From assembly GCA_951406725.2 (NCBI GenBank), contig OX597829.1, positions 6,696,001 through 6,760,000 of the forward strand: a stretch of 64,000 bases of DNA, given 5' to 3'. A program made the position numbers and the translations under genes. Below, piece after piece: positions 2,967 to 59,189 of this stretch. Origin of the DNA: Octopus vulgaris (taxonomy: Eukaryota). Position 1 is the stretch's first letter; each line of letters begins with the position of its first letter. The notes beneath the pieces were generated by a model. The model was not told the DNA's origin and searched no databases. It saw only the letters and a list, made by a program, of their open reading frames with translations.

Positions 2967-3296
2967 AATATATAGATAGATAGATAAATATGTATATGAA
3001 TATGTGTACGTATAAATATATACATGTATATGTACATGTATATATATATAAAATTTAATAAGGGTAGAAATTGATATTAGTCAATTAAAACTGAACACGT
3101 GTTCAGTCCTTTAAATTTGTATGTAAAAATATTTTAATCTTCGGATTTTTTTTAATATGATGGGCCACTTGTTTTAATTGACTAATATCAATTTCTACCC
3201 TTATTAAATTTTATATATATATACATATACATATACATGTATATATTTATACGTACACATATTCATATACATATTTATCTATCTATCTATATATTT
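2967..3296. repeat. Inverted duplication (~125-bp arms) containing the retrozyme-type 3' end motif plus microsatellite flank
   Basis: 2967-3091 is nearly the reverse complement of 3171-3296; arm contains gttttaattgactaatatcaatttctacccttattaaatt(TA)n. Confidence 0.75.
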
Positions 3297-6571: not shown

Positions 6572-6729
6572 GGCGTAGTTGTGTGGTAAGCAGCTTGCTT
6601 CCCAACCACATGGTTACGAGTTCAGTCTCACTGTGTGGCATCTTGACCAGGGGTCTTTTACTATAGCCTCGAGCTGACCAATGCCTTGTGAGTGGATTTG
6701 GTAGAGGGAAACCGAAAGACACCCGTCGC

Positions 6730-7119: not shown

Positions 7120-8470
7120 CATTTCTTTAGAGGATTGCTGGTAATCCATCAAGATCCGCGGCTGAGTTTGAGCACATTTCATCAATGGCTAACATCACGG
7201 CTGGTTTCCTCTATTTTGATGCTATAAATAGTTGCCATTTCGTTGTGTAGGGCTGAGAATCCAAAGAACTCATCAGGCATGGCTACTTGCAAATGTTCCA
7301 ATGGAGTGGTGAAAACACTCTTATAATGCATGTCCAGTATCTCACTGATCCTCTAGGGTTCTGCAGTCGGCGAGCCATTTTCTTCGAATAGTGACCCTAT
7401 TTTGTACCGTACTGAAGCAGTCATTTTTGCATATCTGTAGAAGGCTTTAGGGTTTGTCTGTATTTCTGACAGCCCTGGTTTCTTTACCTGTCCCATCTTT
7501 TTCAAGGCAGTGTTTAGGCTCATTCTTGATCTCGAGCAATATTTGTTTGACACTGGATCCATTGCTATTCTTCAGTGGCCCATTTAGAATGTTTGAAGTT
7601 TTTGCTCATCGTTTCATTAGAATCCTCCTATCACTGAGAATTATATTTTTCTGTTGGTTTGGTATTTTCTATGGAGAAAACTTACTGCATAAAGTGTTGT
7701 AACTTTGTCTATATCTACTTGCGTACATAGACTGACAGATCAGTTTCATTCCATTATCTCTTTCTCAATACCCTTCTAATCAGCTTTGTAAAACTTCAGA
7801 CTGGAGTACTGTTGGGTTCCTCTTGTAGCCTACATGTCTGTAGTCTTCTTGAACCATACATTGTTGGTTTTATTAAATTATAGCCCAAAAAACTCGTTAG
7901 TGTCACTTTAACCTTTTTGGATGAGATCCGTGTTATTTGTGAAGCAGAAGTCCAGGATATGTTTCCCCTTTGTTGGGTGGAGCACTATTTGCTCCATAAA
8001 GAGCATGTTCGTGGTGGTTCTTTCAGACATGCCAAAAAGAGACTCTGCATGCCTCAGGCCTGGCAGTGACATACCTGAGAGAAGGCATCCCTCAGACCAT
8101 TCGATATAAGGGAGGTTGAAAGCCCTTAGAAATATGTGCAGGCTGTTATCCAGGTTTGTTGAAACTTCTTTAATTTCTTGGAGACTCTCTTCAAATGAGT
8201 CCCCATGATTTGGAGTGAATGTTGGGCGATAAGTGGTACATATTACTATTTTCATATGTTTAATGTGTACCACCAGATTTTCGCTGAGTACGTTTGGGTG
8301 TGACATCAGGACCACAGGCGTGGCATCTTCTCGAAAGTACAATGCTACTCCAACATGAATTCTTCCTTTCCCGTCAGTTCGAAACACAACATATTTTGGT
8401 ATGTGTATCTCGGCATCTCATATATCCACGTTTAGATGTGTTTCTATTAGCCACTCATACTGATTCATGA
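7120..8470 (-). mobile_element. Decayed CR1-type LINE ORF2 (APE endonuclease plus linker)
   Basis: 7908-8387 reads VGVALY...TYRP...FNLPYIEW...PTKGKHILDFCFTN (APE); KAFYRYAK...IGSL and AIDEMCSNSAADLDGLPAIL match the ORF at 14696. Confidence 0.85.
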
Positions 8471-9181: not shown

Positions 9182-9189
9182 TATATACA

Positions 9190-10615
9190 TTTACTAGGGT
9201 TAGAATCATTATGAAAATAAGGTAATTTTTTCGTTAATTGAAGAAATAATTTGAGACAAGCTATTTCATACAGAAAGGCAACATTAAGAAATCTAGGGTT
9301 AATAACATCATAATATCTATGTTCTGTTATAAAGTATTTATAAAAAAGTTTGTATAAGGCCCCGACCAAATTAATCTTAATTTGATTGGGGAATTGGATT
9401 ATAAACAAAATATTGTCGCTCATATCAGGTGATACATTATAATTTTCAAATTTTCGAACCTTATTAAATATACAAGGAGTTTGATTTTTTATTCTATTAC
9501 TCATATTCCCAATCGTATGGCGATAATTAGAAGATTGGAGCAATACATTGGTTCTCGTATTTTGCATCTCGTTTTCCTTATTTGGACGTTTAACCTTAAT
9601 TACCCTATCCTTATAACTATTCATAGGAATTTGTTTCAGATCTTTACTATCATGATAAACAGGCATGTTGTTAGAGAAATTGATGTTCATAATTTTAGGA
9701 AAATTCTTCAACTTTTGTTTATACTCAGATTTGTTGAGTGTCACATTATAGAAACTAGCATTTTTGTCAAAAATTTCCTTATTACACAATACATTAGGGA
9801 TTCTTTTAGAGATATTATAAACCAAAAAATTCTTTATTGAACAGGGATGATTGCTTTCTACATTCATATACTTAAGATTGGAGTTAGATTTATGGTATTG
9901 CTCAAGGTTGCCAGTAATGATATTAAGACTAACTTCGGGCATCATCCCTATATAAACCTTGCGAATTTCAGGAGAATCCCTCCCTAAGATAAAAAGAATA
10001 TAAATACCCACTAAATCTGTAACTTGGGCAAAATCTGCAGAGCCCATAGCTATGTCAAAGCCATCCCTACTATCTATGTTAGTCCAATACTGGGTTTCAA
10101 ACTCTACAATAGTTTTTCTGGCGTCTAAAATAACATTAGTTTCATTTATATTTATATTTGATTTTTCGCGAATAGAAGGGCCTTATTTAAAACTTCTTAG
10201 TTAATTAAAAAGTAATAGCTATCAATATCTATTTGGATAAATCTATTCTTGCATTTATATTTAATGCTATGGAACCAATTTATTACTACATAGCTATTAG
10301 ACCAGAGTTGTAACTTAATCTTTTCTTTAACAACCGCCATCTATTTATCCAACGTAGCTTTATTAGTTGGACATGGATAGGGCTGTAGGTATAAGAATTT
10401 CATATTATACTGCTTTGAACATCTTTGAAACAAAACTTATGTTTATATATGAATTACTCCATCTTCTTCTTTTTCTCATTCATTGATATCTTAAATACCA
10501 ATATATATCAATACAAAACTAACGTTTAGAGTCTTTTACTGAACTGATATAAATCGGAGTACTAGGACATCCTTTAAAGGATTATAGATTCTTGGTAGCC
10601 CACCTTATGGGAATA
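9190..10615 (-). mobile_element. Decayed Penelope-like element reverse transcriptase
   Basis: GFDIAMGSADFAQVTDLVGIYIL (PLE FDVxMGSxDGAE motif) and YHKSNSNLKYMNVESNHPCSIKNFLVYNISKRI...EIFDKNASFYNVTLNKSEY (PLE thumb); catalytic DD region appears deleted. Confidence 0.8.
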
Positions 10616-10794
10616 ACAATCAACTACTGTCATTCAAATTCAAAATGACTGACGACTAGCATCACGCTTGAAACTCAAGTGTACCAACGAATTTGATTCA
10701 AACTGTTTTGATCTATAACTGTTTTGATCTATACATGTAACACCCAATAAATTTGTTGAGCACCATTTTTCATTTGTCTACTCACTCGTATATG

Positions 10795-13022: not shown

Positions 13023-13480
13023 ATATTAATAGTTATCGCCAAGCTAATATGGCAGTCCATAAATATAGGACGAAAGCTGCCGTTGATTAGCCCCAAGTGG
13101 CCATCGAATCTAGGTAGCTATGTGACACACGAACCTGTGTCCATTATAACCTTCGAACAGGAGAGGTCAGCCACTCCCCCTTGCCCTTTATCAGGGTATT
13201 TGCCCTTTATCAATGCAGAGTAGCCGAACCCAGCAGCCGTCGCTACTGACCGTCTGTTGGAAGGATTATTTACCTAAATTCAGTGGAATGCATCTACTGG
13301 TATTCAAACCTAGAAATATTATTATTTCTAAGTCTCTCTAAAGGAGACTACAGCAGCGGTAGTCAGAAAACTAGTCTCTCACATATCTAGCTAGAGGCGA
13401 TGGTCACTTGGAGCTAATCAACGGCAGCTTTCGTCCTATATTTATGGACTGCCATATTAGCTTGTCGATAAATATTAATA
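13023..13480. mobile_element. Fold-back element, family B
   Basis: ~95-bp terminal inverted arms (tattaat...gccaagctaatatggcagtccataaatataggacgaaagctgccgttgattagc); hammerhead remnant TTGATAA-AGGG caaata CCCT-GA on minus at ~13190-13213. Confidence 0.7.
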
Positions 13481-13550
13481 TACGTACATATATATAGATA
13501 TATATATATATATATATATATAAATATATAAATATATATATGTATATATA

Positions 13551-14309
13551 GGCAGGGCTGGCCTGCTAGGCAGCCGGCCGAATGCTAGAAAGAGATCATC
13601 AACGATCAAACACCAGAACCAAATTTGGCGGGCAGGCCAGCCCTGCCTATATACACATATATTAGAATTTTCTCTGACTCCTCAGATTTTTTGAATGCTG
13701 GACTACTGGTTTTAAATTGATATTAAAATTAATATTAATTTATCTCCCTCATTACTTAAATATTGAAATAAATACGTTCCCTAGTAGTAAGCACTAACCG
13801 CAGTGAATTATTCACTGCAGTCCTTCGGTTCAGGATTTTCTTAGCGCGCCAGAGCCAAGACATTTGAAATTTTATCCCCGATGTAAACGGTAAAACTAAG
13901 CACGTGTCTGTCTTGACACAGAGAGCTGGGGTTAGTTTTACAGTTTGCATCTCGATGACCGAATGTACTGATGAAGTCACGGACATTTGAATTATGTAAG
14001 TAATTCTTTTGTTAAAGACCGAAACCGAGGTATGCATTTAAGTCTGTTTTTTATTTAAATTTTCATATGTCCTGCCCGCCAAATTTGGTTCTGGTGTTCG
14101 CTGAATTCTTCCTCTAGAGAATTTCCCTTGTAGTTTGATCGTTGATGATCTCTTTCTAGCATTCGGCCGGCTACCTAGCAGGCCAGCCCTGCCTATATAC
14201 ACATATATTAGAATTTTCTCTGACTTCTCAGATTTTTTGAATGCTGGACTACTGGTTTTAAATTGATATTAAAATTAATATTAATTTATCTCCCTCATTA
14301 CTTAAATAT
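13551..14309 (+). mobile_element. Retrozyme-like element: 546-nt monomer plus ~130-nt partial repeat, inverted 5' segment, within (TA)n
   Basis: 13632-13762 repeated at 14178-14308 (period 546); 13551-13635 is the reverse complement of 14071-14096 and 14134-14193; one HHR in the monomer. Confidence 0.8.
13962..14038 (+). ncRNA. Type-I hammerhead ribozyme motif
   Basis: AATGTA-CTGATGA-aGTC...GACc-GAAA-CC GA GG-TA-TGCATT: 6-bp stem I, canonical core, predicted cleavage after 14032. Confidence 0.8.
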
Positions 14310-14526
14310 AAATATATATATATATAAATATATATATATATAAATATATATATATATAATATATATATATATATATAAATATATATATAATATATATATA
14401 TATATACATATATAAATATATATACATATATATATACATATATATATATATATACAAATATGTATATATATATATAAATATATATATACATATATATACA
14501 TATATAAATATATATACATATATAAT

Positions 14527-14600
<74 letters not shown>

Positions 14601-14672
14601 CATATATATATATACACACATATATATACAAATACATATATATACACATATATATATATGCATATACATATA

Positions 14673-16602
14673 CATATGCCAAAGAAACAGCTACGGTGCA
14701 CTGTAGGATAGGGCCACTCCTTGAAAAAGAAGGCACACTCACAGGAAAACCAATGAGGGTAAGTGAAATACTGAATGAGCAATTCAAGAGTGTTTTCACT
14801 CCACCCCTTGGGCATTTCCAAATCAGCAATCCAACTGACTTCTTTAACACTGCAGATATAGAATCAGAGGCGGCGACGATAAATTACATCGATATAAAGG
14901 AAGACGATGTAATAAAGGCTATAGATGAAATGAAAACAGACTCAGCTATTGGCCCCGATGGATTCCCGGCAATCCTCCTAAAAGTATGTAAGAGAGTCCT
15001 AGCAAGACCACTGCAGTTCCTCTTTCAGAGCTTCCTTGCAGCTGGCAAACTTCCAAGAAAACTGAAGGAAGGTAAAATATGCCCTATTCATAAAGGAGGT
15101 AGCAGAGCGGAGGCCAAGAACTACAGACCTATCTCTCTCACCTCACACATCAGCAAGGTCATGGAACGAATAGTCAGAAGGAAACTAATCACCTTCCTTG
15201 AAGAAAATGATTTGCTGCCTGACACCCAACATGGTTTCCGACCAGGAAGAAGCTGCTTAACTCAGCTCCTGCAGCACTATGACTGGGTGCTGAAACAACT
15301 GCTCAACCACTCTAATGTGGAAGTCATATATCTCGACTTCGCAAAGGCCTTCGATAAAGTCGATCATGGAATGATATGTCACAAACTGCGTGATCTTGGC
15401 ATAGTTGGAAAACTAGGAGAAAGGCTTCATGACTTTCTGAAGAATAGAAGTCAGGTGGTAGCAGCCAATGGGGCCACTTCCATTAGCACGCAAATAGTGA
15501 GCGGTGTCCCGCAGGGCACTGTTTTGGGACCACTACTGTTCATAATGGCCCTCTCAGACATGCCCTCAGCCACGCAGAGAGCCACGATCACAAGTTATGC
15601 AGATGATACAAAAGTTTCACAGGCAATACAGAACCCTGAAGACACTAAGCACCTGCAATGTGAGCTGGACGAAATATACAAGTGGGCTGAAAAGAATAGC
15701 ATGCAGTTCAATGCTGAAAAGTTTCAAGCTTTTTACTATCAGCATGCAAAACTGAATGCAATACCCAATGAATACACTGGACCCGGAGGGATTGCAATCC
15801 CAGAGGCACAATCAGTGCGTGACCTGGGTATTCACATGAGTGATGACGCAAACTTTCATGTACATGTTGCTAAACTGACAATGAAATGTAGACGGCTGGC
15901 TGGATGGATTCTTAGAACCTTTAGAACAAGAGAACAAGAAACCATGATGGTCCTCTGGAAGACACTTGTCCTAAGCCACTTTGACTATTGCTCTCAGCTA
16001 TGGTCACCATCCAGTGTCAAGTTGATCACAGAACTTGAGGCGATCCAACGAAGCTACACGAAGAAGATAGCCTCTGTGCAGCATATGAGCTACTGGGAGA
16101 GACTCAAGAGATTAAAGCTCTATTCCCTGGAGCGTAGGCGAGAAAGATATGCCATGATATATATCTGGAAGATCCTGGAAGGTCTTGTCCCAGACTTTGG
16201 CATCGAGAGTCACATAAATGCCAGAACCGGACGCCACTGCGTAGTACCAAGGACTCCAAATTTTCCATCAAGATGTAGGACAAGATATTGTGATAGCCTG
16301 GGCTTCAGAGGCCCACGGCTCTTCAATATCCTCCCGAAGAACCTGAGGGACCTGCATGGTGTAGATGCGGATGTCTTTAAAGTAGGACTGGATCTCTTCC
16401 TGTCAGGTGTCCCGGATGAACCAACTTCACGGCAGGAGGCGCAGATGAGGGCAGCTGCATCGAACTCTCTCATGCATCAGATGGCGTTTGCTAAAAAGCA
16501 TCCGTGAGGTAAAACCGTGTAGCAAACCAAATGGCGGTGCCCCAGCATGGCCACAGGCCATTAGCTGAAACTGGAAAATCAAAATCAAATCAAATCAAAA
16601 TC
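14673..16602 (+). mobile_element. 5'-truncated CR1-type LINE with 3' UTR and (AAATC)n tail, inserted in (TA)n
   Basis: Open RT ORF, short 3' UTR, tail aaaatcaaaatcaaatcaaatcaaaatc at 16575-16602; TA repeats on both sides. Confidence 0.92.
14696..16507 (+). CDS. LINE ORF2 reverse transcriptase (endonuclease domain missing through 5' truncation)
   Basis: 603 aa without stops: [61 protein letters not shown]. Confidence 0.93.
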
Positions 16603-23119: not shown

Positions 23120-23173
23120 CATGCACACACACACATACACACATATATGTATATATAGATATATATTCATACC

Positions 23174-23374
23174 TACTCTAGGCACAAGGCCCGAAAGTTT
23201 GGCCTTGTGCCTAGAGATCGACCAAATTACGCAACTGGTGCGTAATTTATCGACCTCGAAAGGATGAAAGGCAAAGTCGGCCACGGTGGAATTTGAACTC
23301 AGAACGTAAAGACAGACGAAATACCGTTAATCATTTCGCCCAGCGTGCTAATGATTCTGCCAGCTCGCCGCCTT
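23174..23374 (-). mobile_element. tRNA-derived SINE (second family)
   Basis: Minus strand ggcggcgagctggcagaatc...gagttcaaattcc...gcctttcatcctttcgaggtcgataaa; related copies at 27683-27840 (-) and 36886-37005 (+). Confidence 0.85.
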
Positions 23375-23687: not shown

Positions 23688-24130
23688 CTGACAAGGCGAG
23701 CTCCCTAGGCACCGAGCATAGCCAGGTCACTAGTGATTTCGCGTTTACATTAACGCTCGTCAGTAGCTCGCCTCGCTTGCTAGTAAATAAGAAGGTGCAA
23801 TATTGTGGCTATGAGTTTTGACTTTTATTTCTAGCAGTGCTGATGCTGAATAGCACCCTCAGTCGCTTTACTGGAGTGTATATTTTTGCCTTTCGGTTAA
23901 AAATTGCTGACAATTTTAATCTGAAAAGGGTAATTTATTTTAACCCAAGGCACCGGTGAGACCTACAGAAGAGCGTTGTTGTAAACGCGAAAGCATTAGT
24001 GATCTGGCTTACTAGGTGCTTAGGGAACTCACCACCCTTGTCAGTAGATAAGATTATTGTGGTTATGAGTTGTTTTGATTCTTATTTCTAGCAATATTGG
24101 TGTCGAATAGCGCCCTCAGTCGGTTTAGTG
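23688..24130 (+). mobile_element. Retrozyme-like element: ~255-nt monomer plus partial repeat, with inverted 5' segment; two hammerhead copies
   Basis: ~23782-23870 repeated at ~24043-24128; 23688-23768 is the reverse complement of 23961-24044; HHRs at 23720-23768 (-) and 23961-24009 (+). Confidence 0.75.
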
Positions 24131-24477: not shown

Positions 24478-24634
24478 GGCGTGTCTCTTTGGTCAGAAGC
24501 TTGCTTCCCAACCACATGGTTCCGGGGTCCGTCCCACTGCACTGCACCTTGGACATGTGTTTTCTACTATAACATTAGGCCAATCAAATCCTTATGAGTG
24601 TATTTCGTAGACGGAAACTGAAAGAAGCCCGTCG

Positions 24635-24680
<46 letters not shown>

Positions 24681-24989: not shown

Positions 24990-25560
24990 CATCCTTTTAC
25001 TTGTTTCAATCACTTGACTGCAGCCATGCTGGTTTTTAGCCTAGTACTTATTCTATCAGTTTCATTTGCCGAACGCTAGATTACGGGGCATAAACACACC
25101 AACATCGGTTGCTAAGCGATTGGGTGTGGGGAAAAACCGACAAAATGATACACGTATACACACATACACACATACTATGGGCTTCTTAGATCTTTTCACT
25201 TTAATTGGCAGATCGAGAAATTAATTTTTTTGTAAGTAAATACTTTCAAACTTCGGACACTGGTAGAATGTGTCATATAAAACATCTTTTACTCTTAGCT
25301 TTGTTGAGAAAAGTTTCTATTTACGAAGTTATTTCGTGTTAAAGTTGTCGTATTTTGGTAATTTTAACCAATCAATGACATGCATTCAGCTGAATAAAAT
25401 TATTGCTGTTGTTTGTCAACAACAACTACCGATGAAAGTGAAAAAATCCGGCTTCTTTCAGTTTCCGTCTACCAAATCAACTTACAAGGCTATGGTCGGT
25501 CCGAGGCTATAGTGGAAGACCCTTCCCGAGGTGCCATGCAGTGGGACTGAATCCGGATGC
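24990..25560 (-). mobile_element. SINE split into 3' part (24990-25195) and 5' part (25450-25560) by an unrelated insert
   Basis: Reverse-complement matches to the two halves of the 24478 SINE. Confidence 0.65.
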
Positions 25561-26042: not shown

Positions 26043-26270
26043 TATCATGAACTAACTGTTACTTTCTCAGATGCGGCACGAAGTTTTGTCAGTGAAGAGG
26101 TCGCGGTCTGAAAGCGAGGAAAATATTTTGACAATTTAAATTTAAATGTTGAAGTGAATCTAACGGTGTTTGTGTGGTTCTTAAATGGCTTATAAACACC
26201 TTACACGTTGCAATTGATTTCGTTCATGCACACGATCTCAGATCAAGTCACTCGCTATGCAAGTACATCT
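26043..26270 (+). mobile_element. Family A repeat copy
   Basis: Closely similar to 845-1080 including the 5' part; hammerhead-like motif at 26085-26134. Confidence 0.8.
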
Positions 26271-26659
26271 CTTCTTTTAAATTTCTCCGTAAAGTACTTT
26301 TGGTGTTCACATAATAGGGTACTATTTCAATTGCCTACTAAGTGACTGATATATGATTGTTTCTGCTCTTTTTAGACACTAGTTATGTTTGGAGATGTCA
26401 CAGAACCTCTGTTGTGTCTAATTCTCAAAAGGCAAATATTCAATGTATACTTGCTTTACATATACTTTTAAACAAATTTTAGATAGTATTTCGACGACTA
26501 CTACTAAATGGCTGTGTAAGGTACATAATATGTAATGAATATAATGTATTAGAAATATGTCTGAAATCTGCATGTAGTTTTCTCAGGAATCCGTTTAATT
26601 TTATTTCGTGTAGTTATACACTTGCGGTTATAGATAAGAAACTATTGTGAACGTTAACG

Positions 26660-27060
26660 ATGGTAAGAAGCTTGCTTCTTATCAGCCGCATTGTTTCGGG
26701 TTCAGTTCCGCTGTCTGGCATGGTGGGCAGTTGTTTTCTACTATAGCCTCAGGCCGACAAAATTGTTGAGTTGATTTGGTAGACGGAAACTGAAAGAAGC
26801 CTGTCGTATACAGACTGTATATGTGTGTATGTGTGTGTATCAATGTGTGTTTCTTTCTATCTGGGTTTGTCTTCCCCATCACCGTTTGACAAGCGATGGT
26901 GATGCGTTTACGTCCCTATTACTTAGCAGTTCAGCAAAAAAGACCGATGGAATGAGTACTAGGATTAAGAAATAAGTCCTGGGTCGATTTGTTCAACTGA
27001 AACCCTCCAAGGCGGTGCTCCAGCATGGGTGTAGTCAAATGACTGACATAGCTAAAAGAA
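26660..27060 (+). mobile_element. tRNA-derived SINE
   Basis: Colinear with the 24478 copy; tail aaggcggtgctccagcatgggtgtagtcaaatgactgac. Confidence 0.85.
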
Positions 27061-27682: not shown

Positions 27683-27840
27683 TTCTACTCTAGGCACAAG
27701 GCCCGAAATTTTTGGGGAGAGGGCCATTCGATTAGATCGACCCCAGTACTCAACTGATGCTTAATTTATCGCCTCCGAAAGGATGAAAAGCAAAGTCGAC
27801 CTCGGCGGAATTTGAGCTCAGAGCATAAAGACAGACGCTG
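27683..27840 (-). mobile_element. SINE (second family), 3' part
   Basis: tactctaggcacaaggcccgaaa...gaaaggatgaaaagcaaagtcgacc matches 23174-23374. Confidence 0.8.
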
Positions 27841-28667
27841 GCCACTTTCCCTGTTTAATAGGTATGAATCACCAAAGGGCAATGAGATAAGTTTCATAAA
27901 ATTAAATAGCAGCTAGATGAAACGTGTATTTTGGTATTTTGTTTGATTGGGGGGGGGGGATGTTTCTTTTTTGTTCAAACGTAATATAGGTAACTTATCA
28001 AATATAGTAACTGGAACGGTACAAATGTATTAATTTACCTGGAATTTTCTCATCAGAATTTCAAATAGTCGATGCCATAATGAGAATCCGAAACATGCAA
28101 TCACTCAGTGTCAACTTATACACATATATAGGCATATTCATATAGTTTATTGAAGTTGTCGTCTAACTCCAAGTTATACTTGATAGTGCTGATATATCTT
28201 TGATCCATGGCCAATCTGGTCATAAGTACAGAGTTCTGGAATAATCAATATAAGATTTTATTTGATGTTTGTTAAAGATTTCGCTGCTATATACGCGCAG
28301 GTGCGGCTGCGAGGTTAAAACTTTGCTTTCCAACCACATGGTTCCGAATTCAGCACCCCTCCATGCCTATCAGAGACTTGTAAGTGGATTTGATAGGTGG
28401 AAAATGAATGAAGCTTGAAATCCGTTCTCATGGATATAAGGTTTACTAAATTTTTATTCCCTCAAATGTCTTGCTCGAGTAAAAACAACGCGCTAAAAAT
28501 GTTTTATCGTGGTTTTGGGTTTTAACTGCCAAATTTAGCATGTAAGAAATCTACATGGTGGTTTTCTGTCCGTGTTGATGACATACACTATTATATTTCA
28601 AAATATTTATGTCTTTTGACTTTTATCACGCATGCTAACCACTGGTATAAGTAATTTAATAATTTAC

Positions 28668-28716
<49 letters not shown>

Positions 28717-31029: not shown

Positions 31030-31031
<2 letters not shown>

Positions 31032-31346
31032 ACAATTGAGGGTAAAATTAACTAGTTATTAATCAATTTCACCAAGTAGTGTTCAGTATGTAAAAGGACC
31101 ATTTAAGGCGAATTCAAAATATTACATTATATAATTAGGGCTTAGTAAAATAAATTACTTTGCCACATACTGAACTTTCTAGAAATAGCAGCCAAAAAGT
31201 TTTTAGCCATTTCCACTACTTTAAGAAAACTTCTCTCAGATAATGTTTACTCATAAATAACTCACGAAGGTATGGAGGTAAAAACAGTAAAATATCACAA
31301 GTACAAAGATCATTTGAGAACGTCAACGTTTCTAGATTAGCCGAAA
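31030..31346 (-). mobile_element. Diverged partial copy of the 562-nt retrozyme-like monomer
   Basis: Aligns with 41869-42176, same (TA)n-CAACAATTGAGGGTAAAA junction; stops within the hammerhead (gagaacgtcaacgtttc). Confidence 0.8.
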
Positions 31347-31392
31347 TATATATATATGAGAGAGAGAGAGAGGAGGATGGAGAGAGAGACTA

Positions 31393-31594: not shown

Positions 31595-31925
31595 TAAGTC
31601 TGGTATTTATTTTATCGGTCTGATTTACGGGGACGTAAACACACCAACGCCGGTTGTCAAGTGGTGGTGGGGGACAAACATCGATGCAAAGATACACACA
31701 CACACATACATACATACATACATACATACATACATACATACATACACACATACATACATACATACATACATACATACATACATACATACATACATACATG
31801 TCTCTCAGTTTCTGACTCCAAATACATTCACAAGGCTTTGGTCATCCCGAGGTTACAGTAGAAGAGACTTCAGACGGACTGAAGGTGGAACTAGTGGTTC
31901 GGAAACAAGCTTCTTATCACCACAC
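31595..31925 (-). mobile_element. tRNA-derived SINE with internal (TACA)n
   Basis: Reverse-complement match to both halves of the 24478 family. Confidence 0.7.
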
Positions 31926-36240: not shown

Positions 36241-36885
36241 GAACGTCAAATGGCAAAATAAAGCATAACATATATATAAACACGAACCAACAAGTTTCGC
36301 AATGCGACTGCATAATATTACATAGTAAACAAAATTGTTTCTTTAGTGAACTATGTTTAGTATACATATCGCAGCTTTAATAAAATATAGAATATAGTGT
36401 AAGACATTCATCCGTATAGAATGTTACATTAATACAGATAAGTATATCATTTTGCCTCACGTATTCTGGTAGGAGGTGTGTATGTTGTGTGTGTGCGCGC
36501 GCGCGTGCTTGTGTAGTGAAATAATATATCTATATTTAACCATATCTATATGGGTTACATACGCTTTTTATAAAGATTCGAAAGCTGGAAGTAAAGGAGG
36601 CAGATATTTCTGTGTCTAATTGACGACTCTGCTATACTCATTACGACGTCTCCCGCCAGTAAAATCCCTAACATAGAAGAAATAGCTGTTTGTCATTCTT
36701 TTAAGTGCAGCGTGAGAAATCTAAACTAAACTTTGAAGTCACCTTTAAAGTAAATACATACGTGTTCATGTCTATGCGTATCTGTGTGTATTTGCGTTTG
36801 CGCGCGCGCGTGTCTAAACCGGTTTATGTATTAGCATTTATTTAGTGCATGTCATCAGGTAGCTTATAATTATGTTGCAATGCAA

Positions 36886-37420
36886 AAGCGGTGAGCTGGC
36901 AGAATCGTTAGCACGCCGAATAAACTACATTTCATTTGGTATTACGTTCTGAGTTCACATTCCGTCGAGTTTGACTTGAACTTTCAGGATCATTGAAATA
37001 AGTTTCAGGCCTTATGCCTACATTAGAAAAATATTCTTTTGTTATGCTGTTTGGGCTTTATAGGTTCAGGCATGGCTATGTCGTTCAGGTTTTCACTTGC
37101 GACCATGTGCTTCCATATACAATGCCACTGCGCGGTATCATGGGCAAATGCGCCCCCCCTAATGCCTCGTGGTTGAATTTGATAGATGGAAGACCGCCGT
37201 CTGTGTGTGCGTGTTTGTTTTGATTTTTGAGTATTTGACAACGCTGCTACTTCACAAGCGCTGCCGGTCGGTTTACGTCCGCAAGTAGATCGGCATAAAA
37301 AAAAACGGATGTTATAAGTACTGGATACTTCAGAATTATGTAATGAGGTTGATTTGTTTTGACTAAAGTCGTCAAGCCAGTAACCCAGCATGGCCGAAGT
37401 CCAATGGCTAAAATATGGGA
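36886..37420 (+). mobile_element. Two adjacent decayed SINEs (36886-37005 and 37065-37420)
   Basis: Matches to the two SINE families above; tail cccagcatggccgaagtccaatggctaaaa. Confidence 0.7.
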
Positions 37421-41834: not shown

Positions 41835-41868
<34 letters not shown>

Positions 41869-42152
41869 CAACAATTGAGGGTAAAATTAATTAATTATTA
41901 ATCAATTTCACCAAGTGTTCAGTATGCAAAGGGACCATTTAAGGCGAATTCAAATTATTACAATATATAAAAGGGCTTAGTAAAATAAATTACTTTGCCG
42001 CATACTGAACTCATTAGAAATAGCAGCTAAAAAACTTTTTTAAAAAACCATTTCTAATACTTAAAGAAAATCTCTCTCGTATAGTGTTTGGTCAACTCAA
42101 CTCACGAAAGTTTGGGGGTAAAGACATAAAAAAATCAAATGCAAAGGTTATT

Positions 42153-42204
42153 TGAGAACGTACGTTTCAAGATTAGTCATCAAGACACTTCTATCATCAG
42201 CTCA
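42153..42204 (-). ncRNA. Minimal type-I hammerhead ribozyme motif (monomer 1)
   Basis: TGAG-CTGATGA-tAGA..GTC ttgat GAC..TCTt-GAAA-CGTACG-TT-CTCA; palindromic stem III ACGTACGT. Confidence 0.75.
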
Positions 42205-42714
42205 GAAACTCCTTGGTTTGGATTTGAAAACACTGAAAGTGAGAGCATACTCTTTCGGCCTCTCATCGCCTTCGAAGATCTGCTCGTAACTAACAGTGCC
42301 AACAAACTCAAACATGCAAGCGAAGAATTTCTGCCCTCCCCTTTCCACCAGCGTGGGTTAAAATCAACAAACACTCTGCTTATTTCGGTAAAATCCGAAG
42401 CATTAATTAGAGGGAGATTAATTATAATTTCAACAATTGAGGGTAAAATTAATTAATTATTAATCAATTTCACCAAGTGTTCAGTATGCAAAGGGACCAT
42501 TTAAGGCGAATTCAAATTATTACAATATATAAAAGGGCTTAGTAAAATAAATTACTTTGCCGCATACTGAACTCATTAGAAATAGCAGCTAAAAAACTTT
42601 TTTAAAAAACCATTTCTAATACTTAAAGAAAATCTCTCTCGTATAGTGTTTGGTCAACTCAACTCACGAAAGTTTGGGGGTAAAGACATAAAAAAATCAA
42701 ATGCAAAGGTTATT

Positions 42715-42766
42715 TGAGAACGTACGTTTCAAGATTAGTCATCAAGACACTTCTATCATCAGCTCA
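42715..42766 (-). ncRNA. Minimal type-I hammerhead ribozyme motif (monomer 2)
   Basis: Identical to 42153-42204, 562 nt away. Confidence 0.75.
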
Positions 42767-43997
42767 GAAACTCCTTGGTTTGGATTTGAAAACACTGAAA
42801 GTGAGAGCATACTCTTTCGGCCTCTCATCGCCTTCGAAGATCTGCTCGTAACTAACAGTGCCAACAAACTCAAACATGCAAGCGAAGAATTTCTGCCCTC
42901 CCCTTTCCACCAGCGTGGGTTAAAATCAACAAACACTCTGCTTATTTCGGTAAAATCCGAAGCATTAATTAGAGGAGATTAATTATAATTTCAACAATTG
43001 AGGGTAAAATTAATTAATTATTAATCAATTTCACCAAGTGTTCAGTATGCAAAGGGACCATTTAAGGCGAATTCAAATTATTACAATATATAAAAGGGCT
43101 TAGTAAAATAAATTACTTTGCCGCATACTATGCGGCAAAGTATTTATTTACTAAGCCCTTTTATATATTGTAATAATTTGAATTCGCCTTAAATTCCTTG
43201 CATACTGAACACTTGGTGAAATGATTAATAATTAATTAATTTTACCCTCAATTGTTGAAATTATAATTAATCTCCCTCTAATTAATGCTTCGATTTTACC
43301 GAAATAAGCAGAGTGTTTTTGTTTTAACCCACGCTGGTGGAAGGAGGCAGAAATTCTTCGCTCATGTTTGAGTTTGTTGGCACTGTTAGTTACGAGCAGA
43401 TCTTCGAAGCGATGAGAGCGAAAAGTATGCTCTCACTTTCAGTGTTTTCAAATCCACCAAGATTTCTGAGCTGATGATAAGTGTCTTGATGATAATCTTG
43501 AAACGTAGTTTCAAATAACCTTTGCATTTGATTTTTATGTCTTTACCCCAAACTTTCGTGAGTTGAGTTGACCAAACACTATACGAGAGAGATTTTCTTT
43601 AAGTATTAGAAATGGTTTTTTAAAAGGTGCTATTTCTAATGAGTTCAGTATGCGGCAAATAATTTATTTTACTAACCCTTTTATATATTGTAATAATTTG
43701 AATTCTTAAATGTCCCTTTGCATACTGAAACTTGGTGAAATTGATTAATAATTAATTAATTTTACCCTCAATTGTTGAAATTATAATTAATCTCCTCTAA
43801 TTAATGCTTCGGATTTTACCGAAATAAGCAGAGTGTTTGTTGATTTTAACCCACGCTGGTGGAAAGGAGGGCAGAAATTCTTCGCTTGCATGTTTGAGTT
43901 TGTTGGCACTGTTAGTTACGAGCAGATCTTCGAAACGATGAGAGGCCGAAAATATGCTCTCACTTTCAGTGTTTTCAAATCCAAACCAAGGAGTTTC

Positions 43998-44049
43998 TGA
44001 GCTGATGATAGAAGTGTCTTGATGACTAATCTTGAAACGTACGTTCTCA
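43998..44049 (+). ncRNA. Hammerhead motif in the inverted arm
   Basis: Same sequence on the plus strand; a deletion-damaged copy lies at 43467-43513. Confidence 0.7.
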
Positions 44050-44240
44050 AATAACCTTTGCATTTGATTTTTTTATGTCTTTACCCCCAAACTTTCGTGA
44101 GTTGAGTTGACCAAACACTATACGAGAGAGATTTTCTTTAAGTATTAGAAATGGTTTTTTAAAAAGTTTTTTAGCTGCTATTTCTAATGAGTTCAGTATG
44201 CGGCAAAGTAATTTATTTTACTAAGCCCTTTATATATTGT

Positions 44241-44477
<237 letters not shown>

Positions 44478-49045: not shown

Positions 49046-49661
49046 CAGTAGTTATCTAAAGCTTGCGTACACACTTGGTAGTATACCGATTAAAGCAGTT
49101 TCACTGTCTATGGCTAACTGATGTCTTCCACAGGATGAATATGAAAGCCACTGGATCTACTTCGGGAATTATTCAGTGTTCATCGAGTGTGTAACAAAAT
49201 AAGAGAAAGAGAAAATGGAATTCACGCGATCCTGTATTAATCATTAAGATTGTTTCGACGCATTCTGCATCGGTCCCATGTGGGTGAGATTTTGTACAGA
49301 TGGCTGTGCTGCTTCATTCGGTGAGGATGTGCCGCGGCACGTTATATATCGCTCATTAATCTCTGTTTCGCATATTTCGATTGGAATAAAGTTTCTTCAT
49401 TTACCAGTAGCTAGTGGCGTACAAGTGAGAGATCAGAATTTAGAAAAAATGTCACGAAAGGAGTGAAAGGAATGATTTTAAAATAGTACTTACATTTGTT
49501 TTAACCTATTGCATTCATATTCCACATGACAGAACTTAGATCAATATAAGAAATTATTATCACGCCTCTATGAAACAGTATGGCTGAAAGGTTGAGACGT
49601 TAGTTTCATAAACTTGAGATTTCCGGTTCGATCCTACTGCTAGGCATCTTGTGCAAATATC

Positions 49662-51399
<1,738 letters not shown>

Positions 51400-52463
51400 T
51401 ATCAATAGATAATGTGTACCTCTTTCCCGGATAAATTCCATTTGTAAGTTGAGTTCATTGTCGTGACCTGTAAGGATGAGATATTCTGGAACCTTTTAGA
51501 GCTTAAATTGGTTTATACTTCCCTCTTATCTTACCTGTTTCTGATATCACTTTCTCAATTTTTTTAAATTTCACTTTTCTTTTTATATAACATATAATAA
51601 TACACAGATTTTGCAACACATTGATTATAAACCTTTTCGCTCTCTGCCCTTGATGTTTATCTAGATCCCATTGTAGCGTCCTATATTTCATAGCGTAGGG
51701 GCCCTTTTAACTGAAAATAATGAAAAGTGTTTACGTCACCCCCACCTACCTCTTTTTATGGACTTTTTGCACTATCTAATTGAATTCTTCTAAAGTTTGT
51801 TTCTTTATGTGTTAAGGGGTACTTAAGAAATTAAGATTCGAGGGAACATCTAACAATATTTATTTACAACCTGCAGCCAGTTCTGAACTGTCAACTCTTA
51901 ATGCTTTTATTCACAATAAACGCAGTCTACTACCATTAGATCTTTTAATGGTGATAGATAAAAATTAGAAATGAATTACAACCGCATGGTCTATTCCTGC
52001 CACTCCAAAATTGTAGCTGTTTTTCTCTTAGATGATTTCTGCTGTAATAATGGCAACGTGGAATTCCTTCATCTTTTAGCTCTCTTTTTTTTTGCAACAG
52101 ACGATGACACTACATTTGAACTGATGTAATGCTTGTATTGTTCGATTGAATGGTGCCGTCTGAAATGGTCGTATTACGTTAACACCTGACATCATGTTAC
52201 TAATTTCATTTTATTCACCTTACTTCCGGGTGTGCGGATAATACCGGACTGACTTGGTGCCTCAACTTAAGGGCCTAATTCAATTGAATCTTAAATATAT
52301 CTTTGTATATGAGTATATGTATATAAAATGATAAGAGAATATATACATAGAGACAGTGAGAATATAACAATATGAGTGTGTGTCTGTGTATATATATGGC
52401 AAATGGAAGATGGAAGTGATTATTATTAATCACGACAATTGTTTCGGCACATCTAGCATCAAT

Positions 52464-52694: not shown

Positions 52695-54190
52695 TTATTA
52701 ATTTCGGTTATGTGTCTGCGGTCGTACTAGAGCACCACCGTGATATTTCACTTTTACTTATGACTCTTCTTCGGCTGATTTCCCCCAGGGTGGTGCGGTT
52801 TCATCATCACTCCTGTATGTGCTATTTTCTTGGTTGTTGATCCATTTTCTGTATGAGGGAGATTCACACCGCTGCCCTTCTCTCTACCTCATGGAGGGCC
52901 GTCGGCTTATCTGGTATGTGGAGTACACAATGTTATTTCTTTTTTGATGACATTAATGCGCACATTGTGTAGGTTACTTAATTTTTGTGTCATGGCATTG
53001 GCGTGCTGCAGGTCTTTGGAACCTAAGCTATTGCATTGCTTTCTCTTGTATTTAGACGGAATGGACTGTACCTCTGTAAAATACAACGGCATCCAGTTCG
53101 GGCATTTATATAACATTGTGTTTCACCTTCACTTTAGGGAATAAAGTCGTAGGTTTTTCATCTGCTGCACTGTTACAATCCTTTCACTGTAGAGACATTG
53201 GACTGCTTCAATCTTCGCTCTTAGTTTGGCGTTATGTGGTGACCATAGCTGAGAGGTGTAGTACAGGTAGCTGAGAACAAAAGATCTCCACAGGCTCAAC
53301 ATAACTTCTTGGTCTCTTACCTTAAAGGACATTAGTATCCACCCTGTCTGTTGTCTGCACTTTGTTGCTATCTTGGCAATGCACATACTGATTCCGAAGT
53401 ATGTTACTCTGTGATTGCAGTACCTTCATGGTCCGTATATGAAGGCTGCGCTGCATTTGTGAGCTGATAGTGCAGTGCTTGAAATTTTCCAGTGTTAAAC
53501 TGTACATCGTTTACTTCGAAAACCACTTTTACTTTGCATGTAGGTCCCATTGTATGCTTGCGAGGTCATCTGAATTCTTTATTGCTTGTGATAGCTTTTT
53601 GCATCATTAATGTAGATAGTGACACCCGCTGTCTGAGTAAACATGAGCATGTCTAAGACAGTTATTATAAACAGTAATGGTTCCAGGGCAATTCTCTAGG
53701 GAACGCTACTTAGAATTTGAGCTTTCACAGAGAGGGCTGCAACTGCCTCACTTCTGTCTTTAAGGAAATCATGCAACCACTCTCCAAGTTTACTAGTAGC
53801 TTGTGACATATCGTACCATGATCTACGTTCTCAAAGGCCTTCGCGAAGCCAAGATATATTATACTGCCATCTAAATAGTCAGGGAGCTGTTTCAAACCCC
53901 AGGCATGGTGCTGTAAGTGATGTGTGACGCAGCTTCCTCCTGAATGAAACTCATATTGTGTATTGTTTAGTTCGTAATTTTCTTCTTGGAACATTATCAG
54001 TGTCTTTTTGATGATTTGTTCCATGACTTTACGTATAAGTGAAGTCACAGAGATTGGCCAGAGTATTTAACCTCCGCTCTGCTCCTACCTTTGTGGATAG
54101 GGCATATAATGCCTTCTTTATGCTCTTTAGGAAGTTTATCACTTGCAAGGAAACTCTGGAAAATATCTGAAATGGTTTCGCTAAAGCCTG
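52695..54190 (-). mobile_element. Decayed CR1-type LINE, 3' portion
   Basis: IYLGFAKAFENVDHGTICHKL, KCRQQTGWIL, SQLWSPH, LRLYSLK; colinear with 14696-16507; UTR-like end at ~52695-52742. Confidence 0.88.
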
Positions 54191-58975: not shown

Positions 58976-59022
58976 ATATATGAAAGAATGGAGTTGAACG
59001 ACGAATTAACAAAATTCCTTTA

Positions 59023-59105
59023 TTTTCGACATATGTTTCGAAGGCTGCATATTCCTAATTGCGAAGGAATAAGGAGTATATTATGCCGCTTTCTCATCAG
59101 GAAAA
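59023..59105 (-). ncRNA. Type-I hammerhead ribozyme motif in an inverted PLE pseudo-LTR
   Basis: TTTTC-CTGATGA-GAAAGCGGCAT...ATGCAGCCTTC-GAAA-CATATG-TC-GAAAA: canonical core, G10.1-C11.1 pair, GUC site, palindromic stem III. Confidence 0.8.
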
Positions 59106-59189
59106 GCAAGGAACTTATGTCAACATCAAGATGCACGAAAAACTTTTAGATGACTGCTCACACGGAGCTCATAGTAATAATCACTATCT

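Follow-up and report, generated by a model that had tools for sequence, protein, structure and literature searches.

Families of tandem repeats with hammerhead motifs

The window, i.e., the whole 64-kb stretch analyzed here, is AT-rich animal DNA dense in microsatellites. Masked self-comparison (self-BLAST), together with a descriptor scan for hammerhead ribozymes (HHR), resolved four repeat families, A, A2, B, and C. The strict HHR descriptor matched the window six times, whereas 100 Markov shuffles averaged 0.06 hits; one of the six, at 7276 in a LINE-like fragment and with an atypical stem III, is probably false. The units of A, B, and C (562, 546, and 257 bp, respectively) are arranged in tandem, non-coding, and low in GC, and have neither LTRs nor an open reading frame for a reverse transcriptase (RT). 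The type I HHR motif within the unit has an intact core in A and B and is decayed in C, while A2 carries its 3' half. Only A has two consecutive complete HHRs. There was no hammerhead among 150 of the 248 Rfam matches listed, which showed only microsatellite-driven miRNA look-alikes, and no tRNA was found in the window. A partial tandem forming a pLTR is present in A, B, and C. Head-to-head inverted copies with a palindrome at the junction occur in these three families, with short palindromes in B and C, and in an additional element, E. Judging from these sequence features, A, A2, B, and C are very probably non-autonomous derivatives of Penelope-like elements (PLEs), i.e., non-LTR retrozymes.

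The direct part of B (13632-14305, + strand), delimited by self-BLAST, is a partial tandem of 1.2 units that runs into a (TA)n array (14306-14677); another array lies on its left flank (13488-13550). Two copies of CCCTCA were found in it by motif scan, at 13746 and 14292. Its type I hammerhead (13961-14039, +), obtained in the descriptor scan with its shuffle control, has the core CTGATGA at 13968-13974 and a predicted cleavage site after 14032. The inverted head-to-head 5' copy (13551-13639, - strand) also ends at (TA)n. The surroundings of B are rich in other repeats. An open frame of a LINE-type RT (14678-16507, +; Pfam RVT_1, E 1e-30) begins right after the (TA)n that follows B, and related fragments occur at 7263-7400 and 53463-54183. 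To the left of B, between two TA arrays, a 103-bp inverted repeat (13023-13125 and 13379-13481, 92%) bounds a MITE-like element of about 460 bp. Two SINE-like interspersed families are found elsewhere in the window, one at 23173-23318, 27685-27837, and 36884-36986, and the other at 6584-6728, 24490-24636, 25450-25557, 26661-26808, and 31800-31865.

The A tandem (41867-43129, - strand; self-BLAST) comprises 2.2 units and ends in (TA)15. The descriptor scan places its HHR cores at 42200 and 42762, and the motif scan places the first C of its CCCTCA copies at 43004, 42443, and 41881 (all -). It is followed by an inverted arm of about 2 units (43130-44244, +) that ends at (AT)n. Relative to the left arm, the right arm has 57 deletions, 2 substitutions, and 1 insertion. 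The deletions are of the single-base type and probably result from sequencing or read error across the palindrome. We considered whether the inversion at 43129 is a pure fold-back artefact and rejected this, since the right arm ends in a different (AT)n, about 90 nt before the point that corresponds to the end of the left arm, and the left flank is not mirrored. The inversion itself thus seems real.

A2 (31030-31347, -) is a 5'-truncated relative of A with a full 3' domain. The direct part of C (23791-24130, +) is a partial tandem whose decayed HHR has its core at 23966-23972, and its inverted 5' copy (23688-23769, -) carries an HHR with the core at 23757-23763. Two further elements are tentative members of the set. 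D (28400-28670, +) would be a decayed relative of A and B, with a P1-like stem (28535-28543/28630-28638, +) whose probability of arising by chance is 4%. E (3050-3213) consists of a short inverted pair, arranged head to head about a palindrome of 18 bp, and has CCCTTA, 8 nt, and (TA)n at either end. A, A2, B, and, weakly, D and E are homologous across the last ~100 nt (pairwise p of 0.007 for D with A, and of 0.003 for E with B, uncorrected for 15 pairs). C has no detectable homology to the other families (p 0.29-0.68). The possibility that D is itself a tandem (28459 versus 28667) was unconvincing. A weak match to the model of the 3' domain described below (28379-28471, +; E 0.78) ends at a second CCCTCA within D (28459), which may be a remnant landmark. 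Finally, element G (58982-59110, -) has a canonical HHR with its core at 59094-59100 and ends at (TA)n about 47 nt past the cleavage site. The hammerhead of G has a long structured stem II, and its end resembles the short end of Hydra-clade PLEs.

Fixed 3' ends at (TA)n

The original prediction had named six copies of a motif, CCCT(C/T)A, close to microsatellites at the 3' ends of HHR elements. All six exist, with two reverse-strand coordinates displaced by 1 nt (the true spans are 41876-41881 and 31037-31042), and the gap to the microsatellite is indeed short, from 0 to 12 nt (9-11 in A, 7-8 in A2, 8-12 in B, ~12 in C, 8 in E, and 0 in D). In D, the CCCT lies so close to (TA)n that the final TA of CCCTTA may already belong to the target. 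Other parts of the claim were too broad. The six are not all HHR elements: E has none, and D has only a look-alike of the 3' half of an HHR. Nor are the families unrelated apart from their ends, as A and A2 are 81-87% identical, and A and B have about 100 nt and the fold in common. The signature is not general either, for CCCT(C/T)A is missing from the (TA)n end of the HHR element G, at 59100 (-).

There are 42 CCCT(C/T)A sites in the window. Such a site lies within 25 nt upstream of 7 of the 220 microsatellite edges, where 1.7 are expected, and of 6 of the 83 edges starting with TA, where 0.65 are expected; these counts include the inverted duplicate of the site at 3198. When 12,288 patterns were scanned blindly, CCCT(C/T)A was outside the top 15 listed, all of which are TA-like. 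Taken alone, the enrichment at edges is therefore post hoc. A better and fairer test is provided by ends that are defined through homology. The end points are fixed along the unit, as had been proposed, and CCCTCA is common to the homology-defined ends of A, B, and C. In 200,000 draws of three random windows of 25 nt, a hexamer common to all three turned up in 0.15% of cases, and one with at least 3 G/C in 0.012%.

The expected enrichment of (TA)n at the junctions was borne out within the window: (TA)3 follows 6 of the 9 homology-defined ends, which were set by eye, against a background of 1.85% (P 3e-9). The three others are the main end of B, with an imperfect TA repeat about 5 nt later, and the main and inverted ends of C, which lie at GT-type repeats. 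A, A2, and B are flanked on either side by TA repeats, in agreement with the idea that the copies sit inside (TA)n, and this speaks for insertion into a pre-existing array rather than for tail growth. Target-site duplications are indiscernible inside (TA)n, as is also stated for the PLEs known as Naiads (Craig et al. 2021, PMC8557442). Another family, F (849-1080, 26045-26290, 49659-49996, and 51063-51402), has no HHR and ends with CATCTCCGTA followed by (AT)n in 3 of its 4 copies, two of which are in facing orientation on either side of an (AT)n array of 1 kb. This unrelated family reaches (TA)n with another end sequence.

A folded domain upstream of the junction

The AT-rich block that precedes the motif had been noticed in the original prediction, which missed that, in the predicted structure, it is a stem-loop. 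The block makes up the stem of P4, a hairpin closed by pairing between a GG and the CC within CCCUCA. P4 has 15 bp in family A; the figures for A2, B, C, and E are 14, 13+2, 5-6, and 6, respectively, and the stem is weak in D. In A, A2, and B, the last 149 nt fold alike, into a domain of ~145 nt with a single fold on the hammerhead strand: a P1 of 10-11 bp encloses the hairpin P2 (GGC..GCC with CU after it), the small P3, and an AU linker between them, and is followed by P4. In B, this domain (14155-14297, +) consists of P1 (14155-14164/14239-14248), P2 (14165-14188, then CT, with CCCT at 14187), and P4, which starts at 14254 and closes at the CCCTCA of 14292-14297. In the terminal unit of A, it spans 41876-42010 (-), with P1 at 42000-42010/41917-41927 and P4 from 41912 to the CCCTCA at 41876-41881.

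Several observations bear on whether this is a structure of the RNA. Folded as RNA on the HHR strand, the domains have z-scores of -6.0 in A (in an internal copy identical to the terminal one), -6.2 in A2, and -5.7 in B, and none of 200 shuffles was as stable. The z-scores are -4.0, -2.2, and -2.9, respectively, on the opposite strand and -3.8, -2.4, and -3.8 with DNA parameters. When A, A2, and B were aligned by sequence only, 7 of the 19 P1/P2 pairs change on both sides, and 96.5% of the cells of the alignment are paired, a value reached in none of 500 shuffles. With D added, 7 of 14 pairs change on both sides, and RNAalifold recovers the same helices. The covariation sample is one of 3-4 related sequences, and it was in A that the structure was first recognised.

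Sequence variants provide independent support for the fold of A, A2, and B, as far as can be read from contigs of four runs (of the 24 listed) that bear three organism labels and cover one A unit. The variants are unphased and were drawn from 40 of the 65 listed. Both partners of a P1 pair, 42562 and 42489, vary from C-G to U-A in all four runs, with shares of 0.49/0.45, 0.55/0.58, 0.43/0.20, and 0.53/0.41. The listed variants also include a change from G-C to G-U at 42479 and one at 42456 (4-20%) that opens the top pair of P4. The remaining three variants listed within the 3' domain affect unpaired positions. The depth of the contigs was 2.1 to 4.7 times higher over 42425-42595 than past the junction, an observation that we set aside because the profile is noisy and contig depth cannot rank parts of the element. 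No (TA)n junction was present among 24 of the 312 loose contig ends listed.

A model built from A, A2, and B failed to recover C, D, and E. D and E therefore stay tentative members, and C, which is without the P1 domain, has the landmarks alone in common with the others.

A second end point and a tail at one end

The hairpin closed by GG..CC and followed by CU occurs twice in each family. A second one lies upstream of the main motif, at a distance of 94 nt in A, 105 in B, and 78 in C. We refer to the position after P4 as site 1 and to that after the second hairpin, P2 in A and B, as site 2. In C, site 2 is a hairpin with CCCT at 24035 and site 1 a hairpin with CCCTCA at 24113 (+). The inverted 5' copies stop shortly after the site-2 position, 15-17 nt past it in A, 3-9 in B, and 6-7 in C, where the inverted copy reads GCCTT and the direct copy CCCT. 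The inverted copies thus fall short of the main end by roughly 75-110 nt, which leaves a tail at one end only. In E, both ends are at site 1. Hence, A, B, and C each have two preferred end points, both just 3' of a stem closed by GG..CC and followed by CU. The ends counted are four main ones defined by homology and three inverted ones, and A, A2, and B are kin. Positions 0-20 nt after any CCCT make up 4.1% of all positions, and those after a hairpin-closed CCCT 0.8%. By analogy with the PLE studied in vitro (see below), the two end classes would match two internal start sites of reverse transcription.

Search for an autonomous partner

The open frame at 9187-10182 (-) is a decayed RT fragment of a Hydra-clade PLE. 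It had 479 protein matches in an unindexed search and a tblastn span of 9646-10373, while a word-indexed search gave no match among longer proteins. Its frame of 332 codons is without the YRDD stretch and is cut by (TA)n before the endonuclease. The full-length relatives have the RWK, DKT, and CxCx5C motifs described for Hydra elements (PMC8557442). We rejected the CCCTAG that precedes (TA)n in this fragment as an element end, since it lies within coding sequence ahead of the missing endonuclease. HHR-like remnants are found nearby, at 10649 (+) and 11088 (-). No Hydra relatives were found in viral contigs, and the motif had no match in prokaryotic genomes.

By alignment of five relatives, we gathered 78 Hydra loci from other organisms (the best 80 of 427), of which 64 were examined; the 14 left out of the UTR counts are mostly short, truncated, or interrupted matches. 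Among the 64, 40 have an HHR core, and 31 have at least 90 nt past the HHR. The same motif had been expected at the 3' ends of autonomous PLEs. This was not the case here: CCCT(C/T)A occurs in 1 of the 31 loci, beyond the TA junction of that copy, and model R1 had no hits in the 78 loci, which thus include no autonomous PLE with such an end. Instead, 22 of the 31 have another hairpin, GCTC-loop-GAGC(A/G)(C/T)T, 45-67 nt after the HHR, which is also visible by eye in several published Hydra consensi. The (TA)n junctions of these loci lie ~40-65 nt after the HHR or past this end hairpin. The GCTC..GAGCACT hairpin, an unpublished criterion derived from these loci, had no match in the window. By eye, no terminal homology was seen in the ends of 6 Hydra and 3 cephalopod Naiad consensi. 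The different end hairpin and the lack of R1 hits make Hydra elements of this type unlikely helpers for A, B, and C. Both groups have an HHR near the 3' end, (TA)n targets, and short and long end classes, whereas they differ in the end hairpin, which is closed by GG..CC-CTCA in the families studied here.

Mechanism and competing readings

The best mover of these elements would be an endonuclease/RT of the PLE type acting in trans, as originally proposed. We consider it likely that A, A2, B, and C are non-autonomous PLEs mobilised in trans by a PLE RT/GIY-YIG protein, with the landmarks at their ends, and lean, with less assurance, towards the 3' fold setting the start sites of reverse transcription. 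Under this mechanism, the arrays would be transcribed as multimeric RNA, longer than a unit, which the hammerhead may cut or circularise. The PLE protein would bind the 3' domain and nick (TA)n. Reverse transcription would then initiate within the RNA at a point 7-12 nt beyond P4-CUCA, where no more than a few A-U pairs would assist, and could extend beyond a single unit. The inverted, tail-less copy would arise from another start, after P2-CU, and the 78-105 nt between the two sites would be the PLE "tail". That one enzyme serves several families is plausible for A, A2, and B, which are relatives, but conjectural for C, and G and F reach (TA)n with other ends.

The original prediction had attributed the fixed ends to a priming site on the RNA that anneals to nicked (TA)n. 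The start would then be set by pairing of AU-rich RNA with the (TA)n primer, and the hairpin would be incidental or serve RNA stability. ATAT or TATA does occur at the main junction, or 1 nt past it, in A and B, both of which also have their inverted ends within the TA-rich linker, with an overlap of 6 nt in B, and joining by microhomology is known at the 5' junctions of PLEs. However, the overlap between RNA and target at the main junctions is ~2 nt in A, 1 in A2, 4 in B, and 0 in C, and TATA or ATAT occurs in 9% of random 10-nt windows, so that annealing can be at most an aid. Moreover, other AU-rich stretches of the units go unused, and the PLE PAc initiates without homology (PMC11167929). 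Annealing is weakly supported, and we regard it as unlikely to set the start. The landmark looks structural, a hairpin and CU, rather than a sequence that pairs with a primer.

Slightly less probable still is shared ancestry alone, in which one ancestral pLTR gave rise to all families, the motif and fold were kept for another job of the RNA (circRNA stability, export, hammerhead folding, or transcription end), and the protein fixes the ends. The homology of A, A2, and B, and weakly of D and E, across their last ~100 nt would follow from such a history, and G ends at (TA)n without the fold. What speaks against it is family C, which, without detectable homology, has both hairpin-CU landmarks at its two ends, and the fact that both end classes follow the landmarks.

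We also considered rolling-circle elements of the Helentron type (HINE/DINE-1-like), with the arms of P1 as subterminal inverted repeats, P4 as the 3' palindrome, and the hammerhead as cargo. The distances of the 3' arm of P1 (~50 nt) and of the hairpin (~13 nt) from the end of A are within the HINE ranges of 38-60 and 8-35 bp, and the centre of the A inversion falls in the 5' arm of P1. This arm, however, is internal (in A, A2, and B, it lies ~135-145 nt before the 3' end) and not 2-4 nt from the 5' terminus, the targets are (TA)n or GT-type repeats and not TT or T-rich sites, and there are head-to-head inversions with a one-sided tail. The G-U pairs, the strand asymmetry, and the better folding as RNA than as DNA indicate a structure at the RNA level and argue against this reading, which is very improbable.

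The motif CCCT(C/T)A is also one mismatch away from CCCTAA, the reverse complement of the telomeric repeat. That it could be a vestige of priming by endonuclease-lacking PLEs on chromosome ends, such elements carrying stretches of this kind beside HHRs (Craig et al. 2021, PMC8557442), is hardly credible, as the motif is single-copy, half of it is paired in a stem, and the junctions, 7-12 nt downstream of it, are with (TA)n rather than telomeric repeats.

To return to the 3' fold as the site where a PLE protein would start, most of what it entails is not new. Fixed ends, TA targeting, and trans-mobilisation are expected PLE biology, and type I hammerheads, tandems, inversions, and a tail at one end are published PLE traits. 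The part worth following is the covarying 3' domain with its twin landmarks, seen in few copies. A broader proposal, which we find conceivable but do not favour on balance, is that each lineage of PLE-system RNAs has its own covarying 3' structure by which the RT recognises where to begin, in this case the P1-P4 domain, whose two GG..CC-CU landmarks place the starts and define the tail; it would include the unrelated C, and the GCUC..GAGCACU hairpin of Hydra elements would have the equivalent role. If this were true, PLEs would gain a 3' recognition code like that of SINEs and LINEs, and an RNA-boundary rule reminiscent of telomerase, the sister RT of PLEs. The origin of the tandem and inverted structures of PLEs and their microsatellite bias are named as unresolved by Craig et al. 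2021 (PMC8557442), and two internal starts without a conserved determinant are described for one element by Frangieh et al. 2024 (PMC11167929). Hairpins of a domain aligned with two end classes turn the start-site question into a mutation-and-rescue experiment. The domain also offers a means of matching retrozymes to the PLE that helps them and of annotating a repeat that is very abundant.

Comparison with known systems

Our literature search found no description of the 3' domain of A, A2, and B or of the Hydra end hairpin, although Repbase, Dfam, subscription journals, and supplements may contain them; the words "stem-loop" and "hairpin" are absent from the main text of Craig et al. 2021 (PMC8557442). 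Further literature for comparison is found in PMC4209133 and PMC13282606.

In HINE/DINE-1 elements (Thomas et al. 2014, PMC4067079), an inverted repeat and a 3' hairpin lie at similar distances from the end, whereas the present elements have neither a terminal 5' subTIR nor a TT target and have a hammerhead and head-to-head inversions. The likeness to the non-LTR retrozymes of animals is closer: these have non-coding, low-GC tandem units, type I HHRs, and a proposed mobilisation by PLEs (Cervera and de la Pena 2020, PMC7229834; Li et al. 2026). The units of A, B, and C are within the reported range of 51-972 bp, and animal retrozymes are described as deriving from the pLTRs of PLEs by Li et al. 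2026 (bioRxiv 10.64898/2026.07.22.740005). The conserved 3' domain, the fixed end points, and the (TA)n junctions are present here and absent from the retrozyme descriptions that we compared (PMC7229834; Li et al. 2026).

Endonuclease-containing PLEs have partial tandems, an inverted 5'-truncated copy, a palindrome at the inversion, and a tail at one end (PMC8557442; Arkhipova et al. 2013, PMC3846280), all of which are found here. The tail is one-sided and of 30-40 bp in the account of Craig et al. 2021 (PMC8557442), which also reports the preference for (TA)n, stated for Naiad and Hydra, with a microsatellite bias for Neptune (PMC8557442; PMC3846280). Unlike these elements, the present ones have no ORF, and their tail is longer, 78-105 nt.

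The nearest experimental parallel is PAc, a Poseidon element of Anolis and the one PLE tested in vitro (Frangieh et al. 2024, PMC11167929). It cuts AT-rich DNA and has two internal initiation sites, which lie at a stem-loop lacking homology to the DNA that is cut. PAc and the elements of the window are alike in having two internal RT starts (putative here) that bound the tail, a stem-loop downstream of the HHR, and AT-rich targets. The sites of PAc, however, are in the ORF and at an AC-rich stem-loop, whereas those described here come after GG..CC-CU hairpins in a non-coding domain of several helices.
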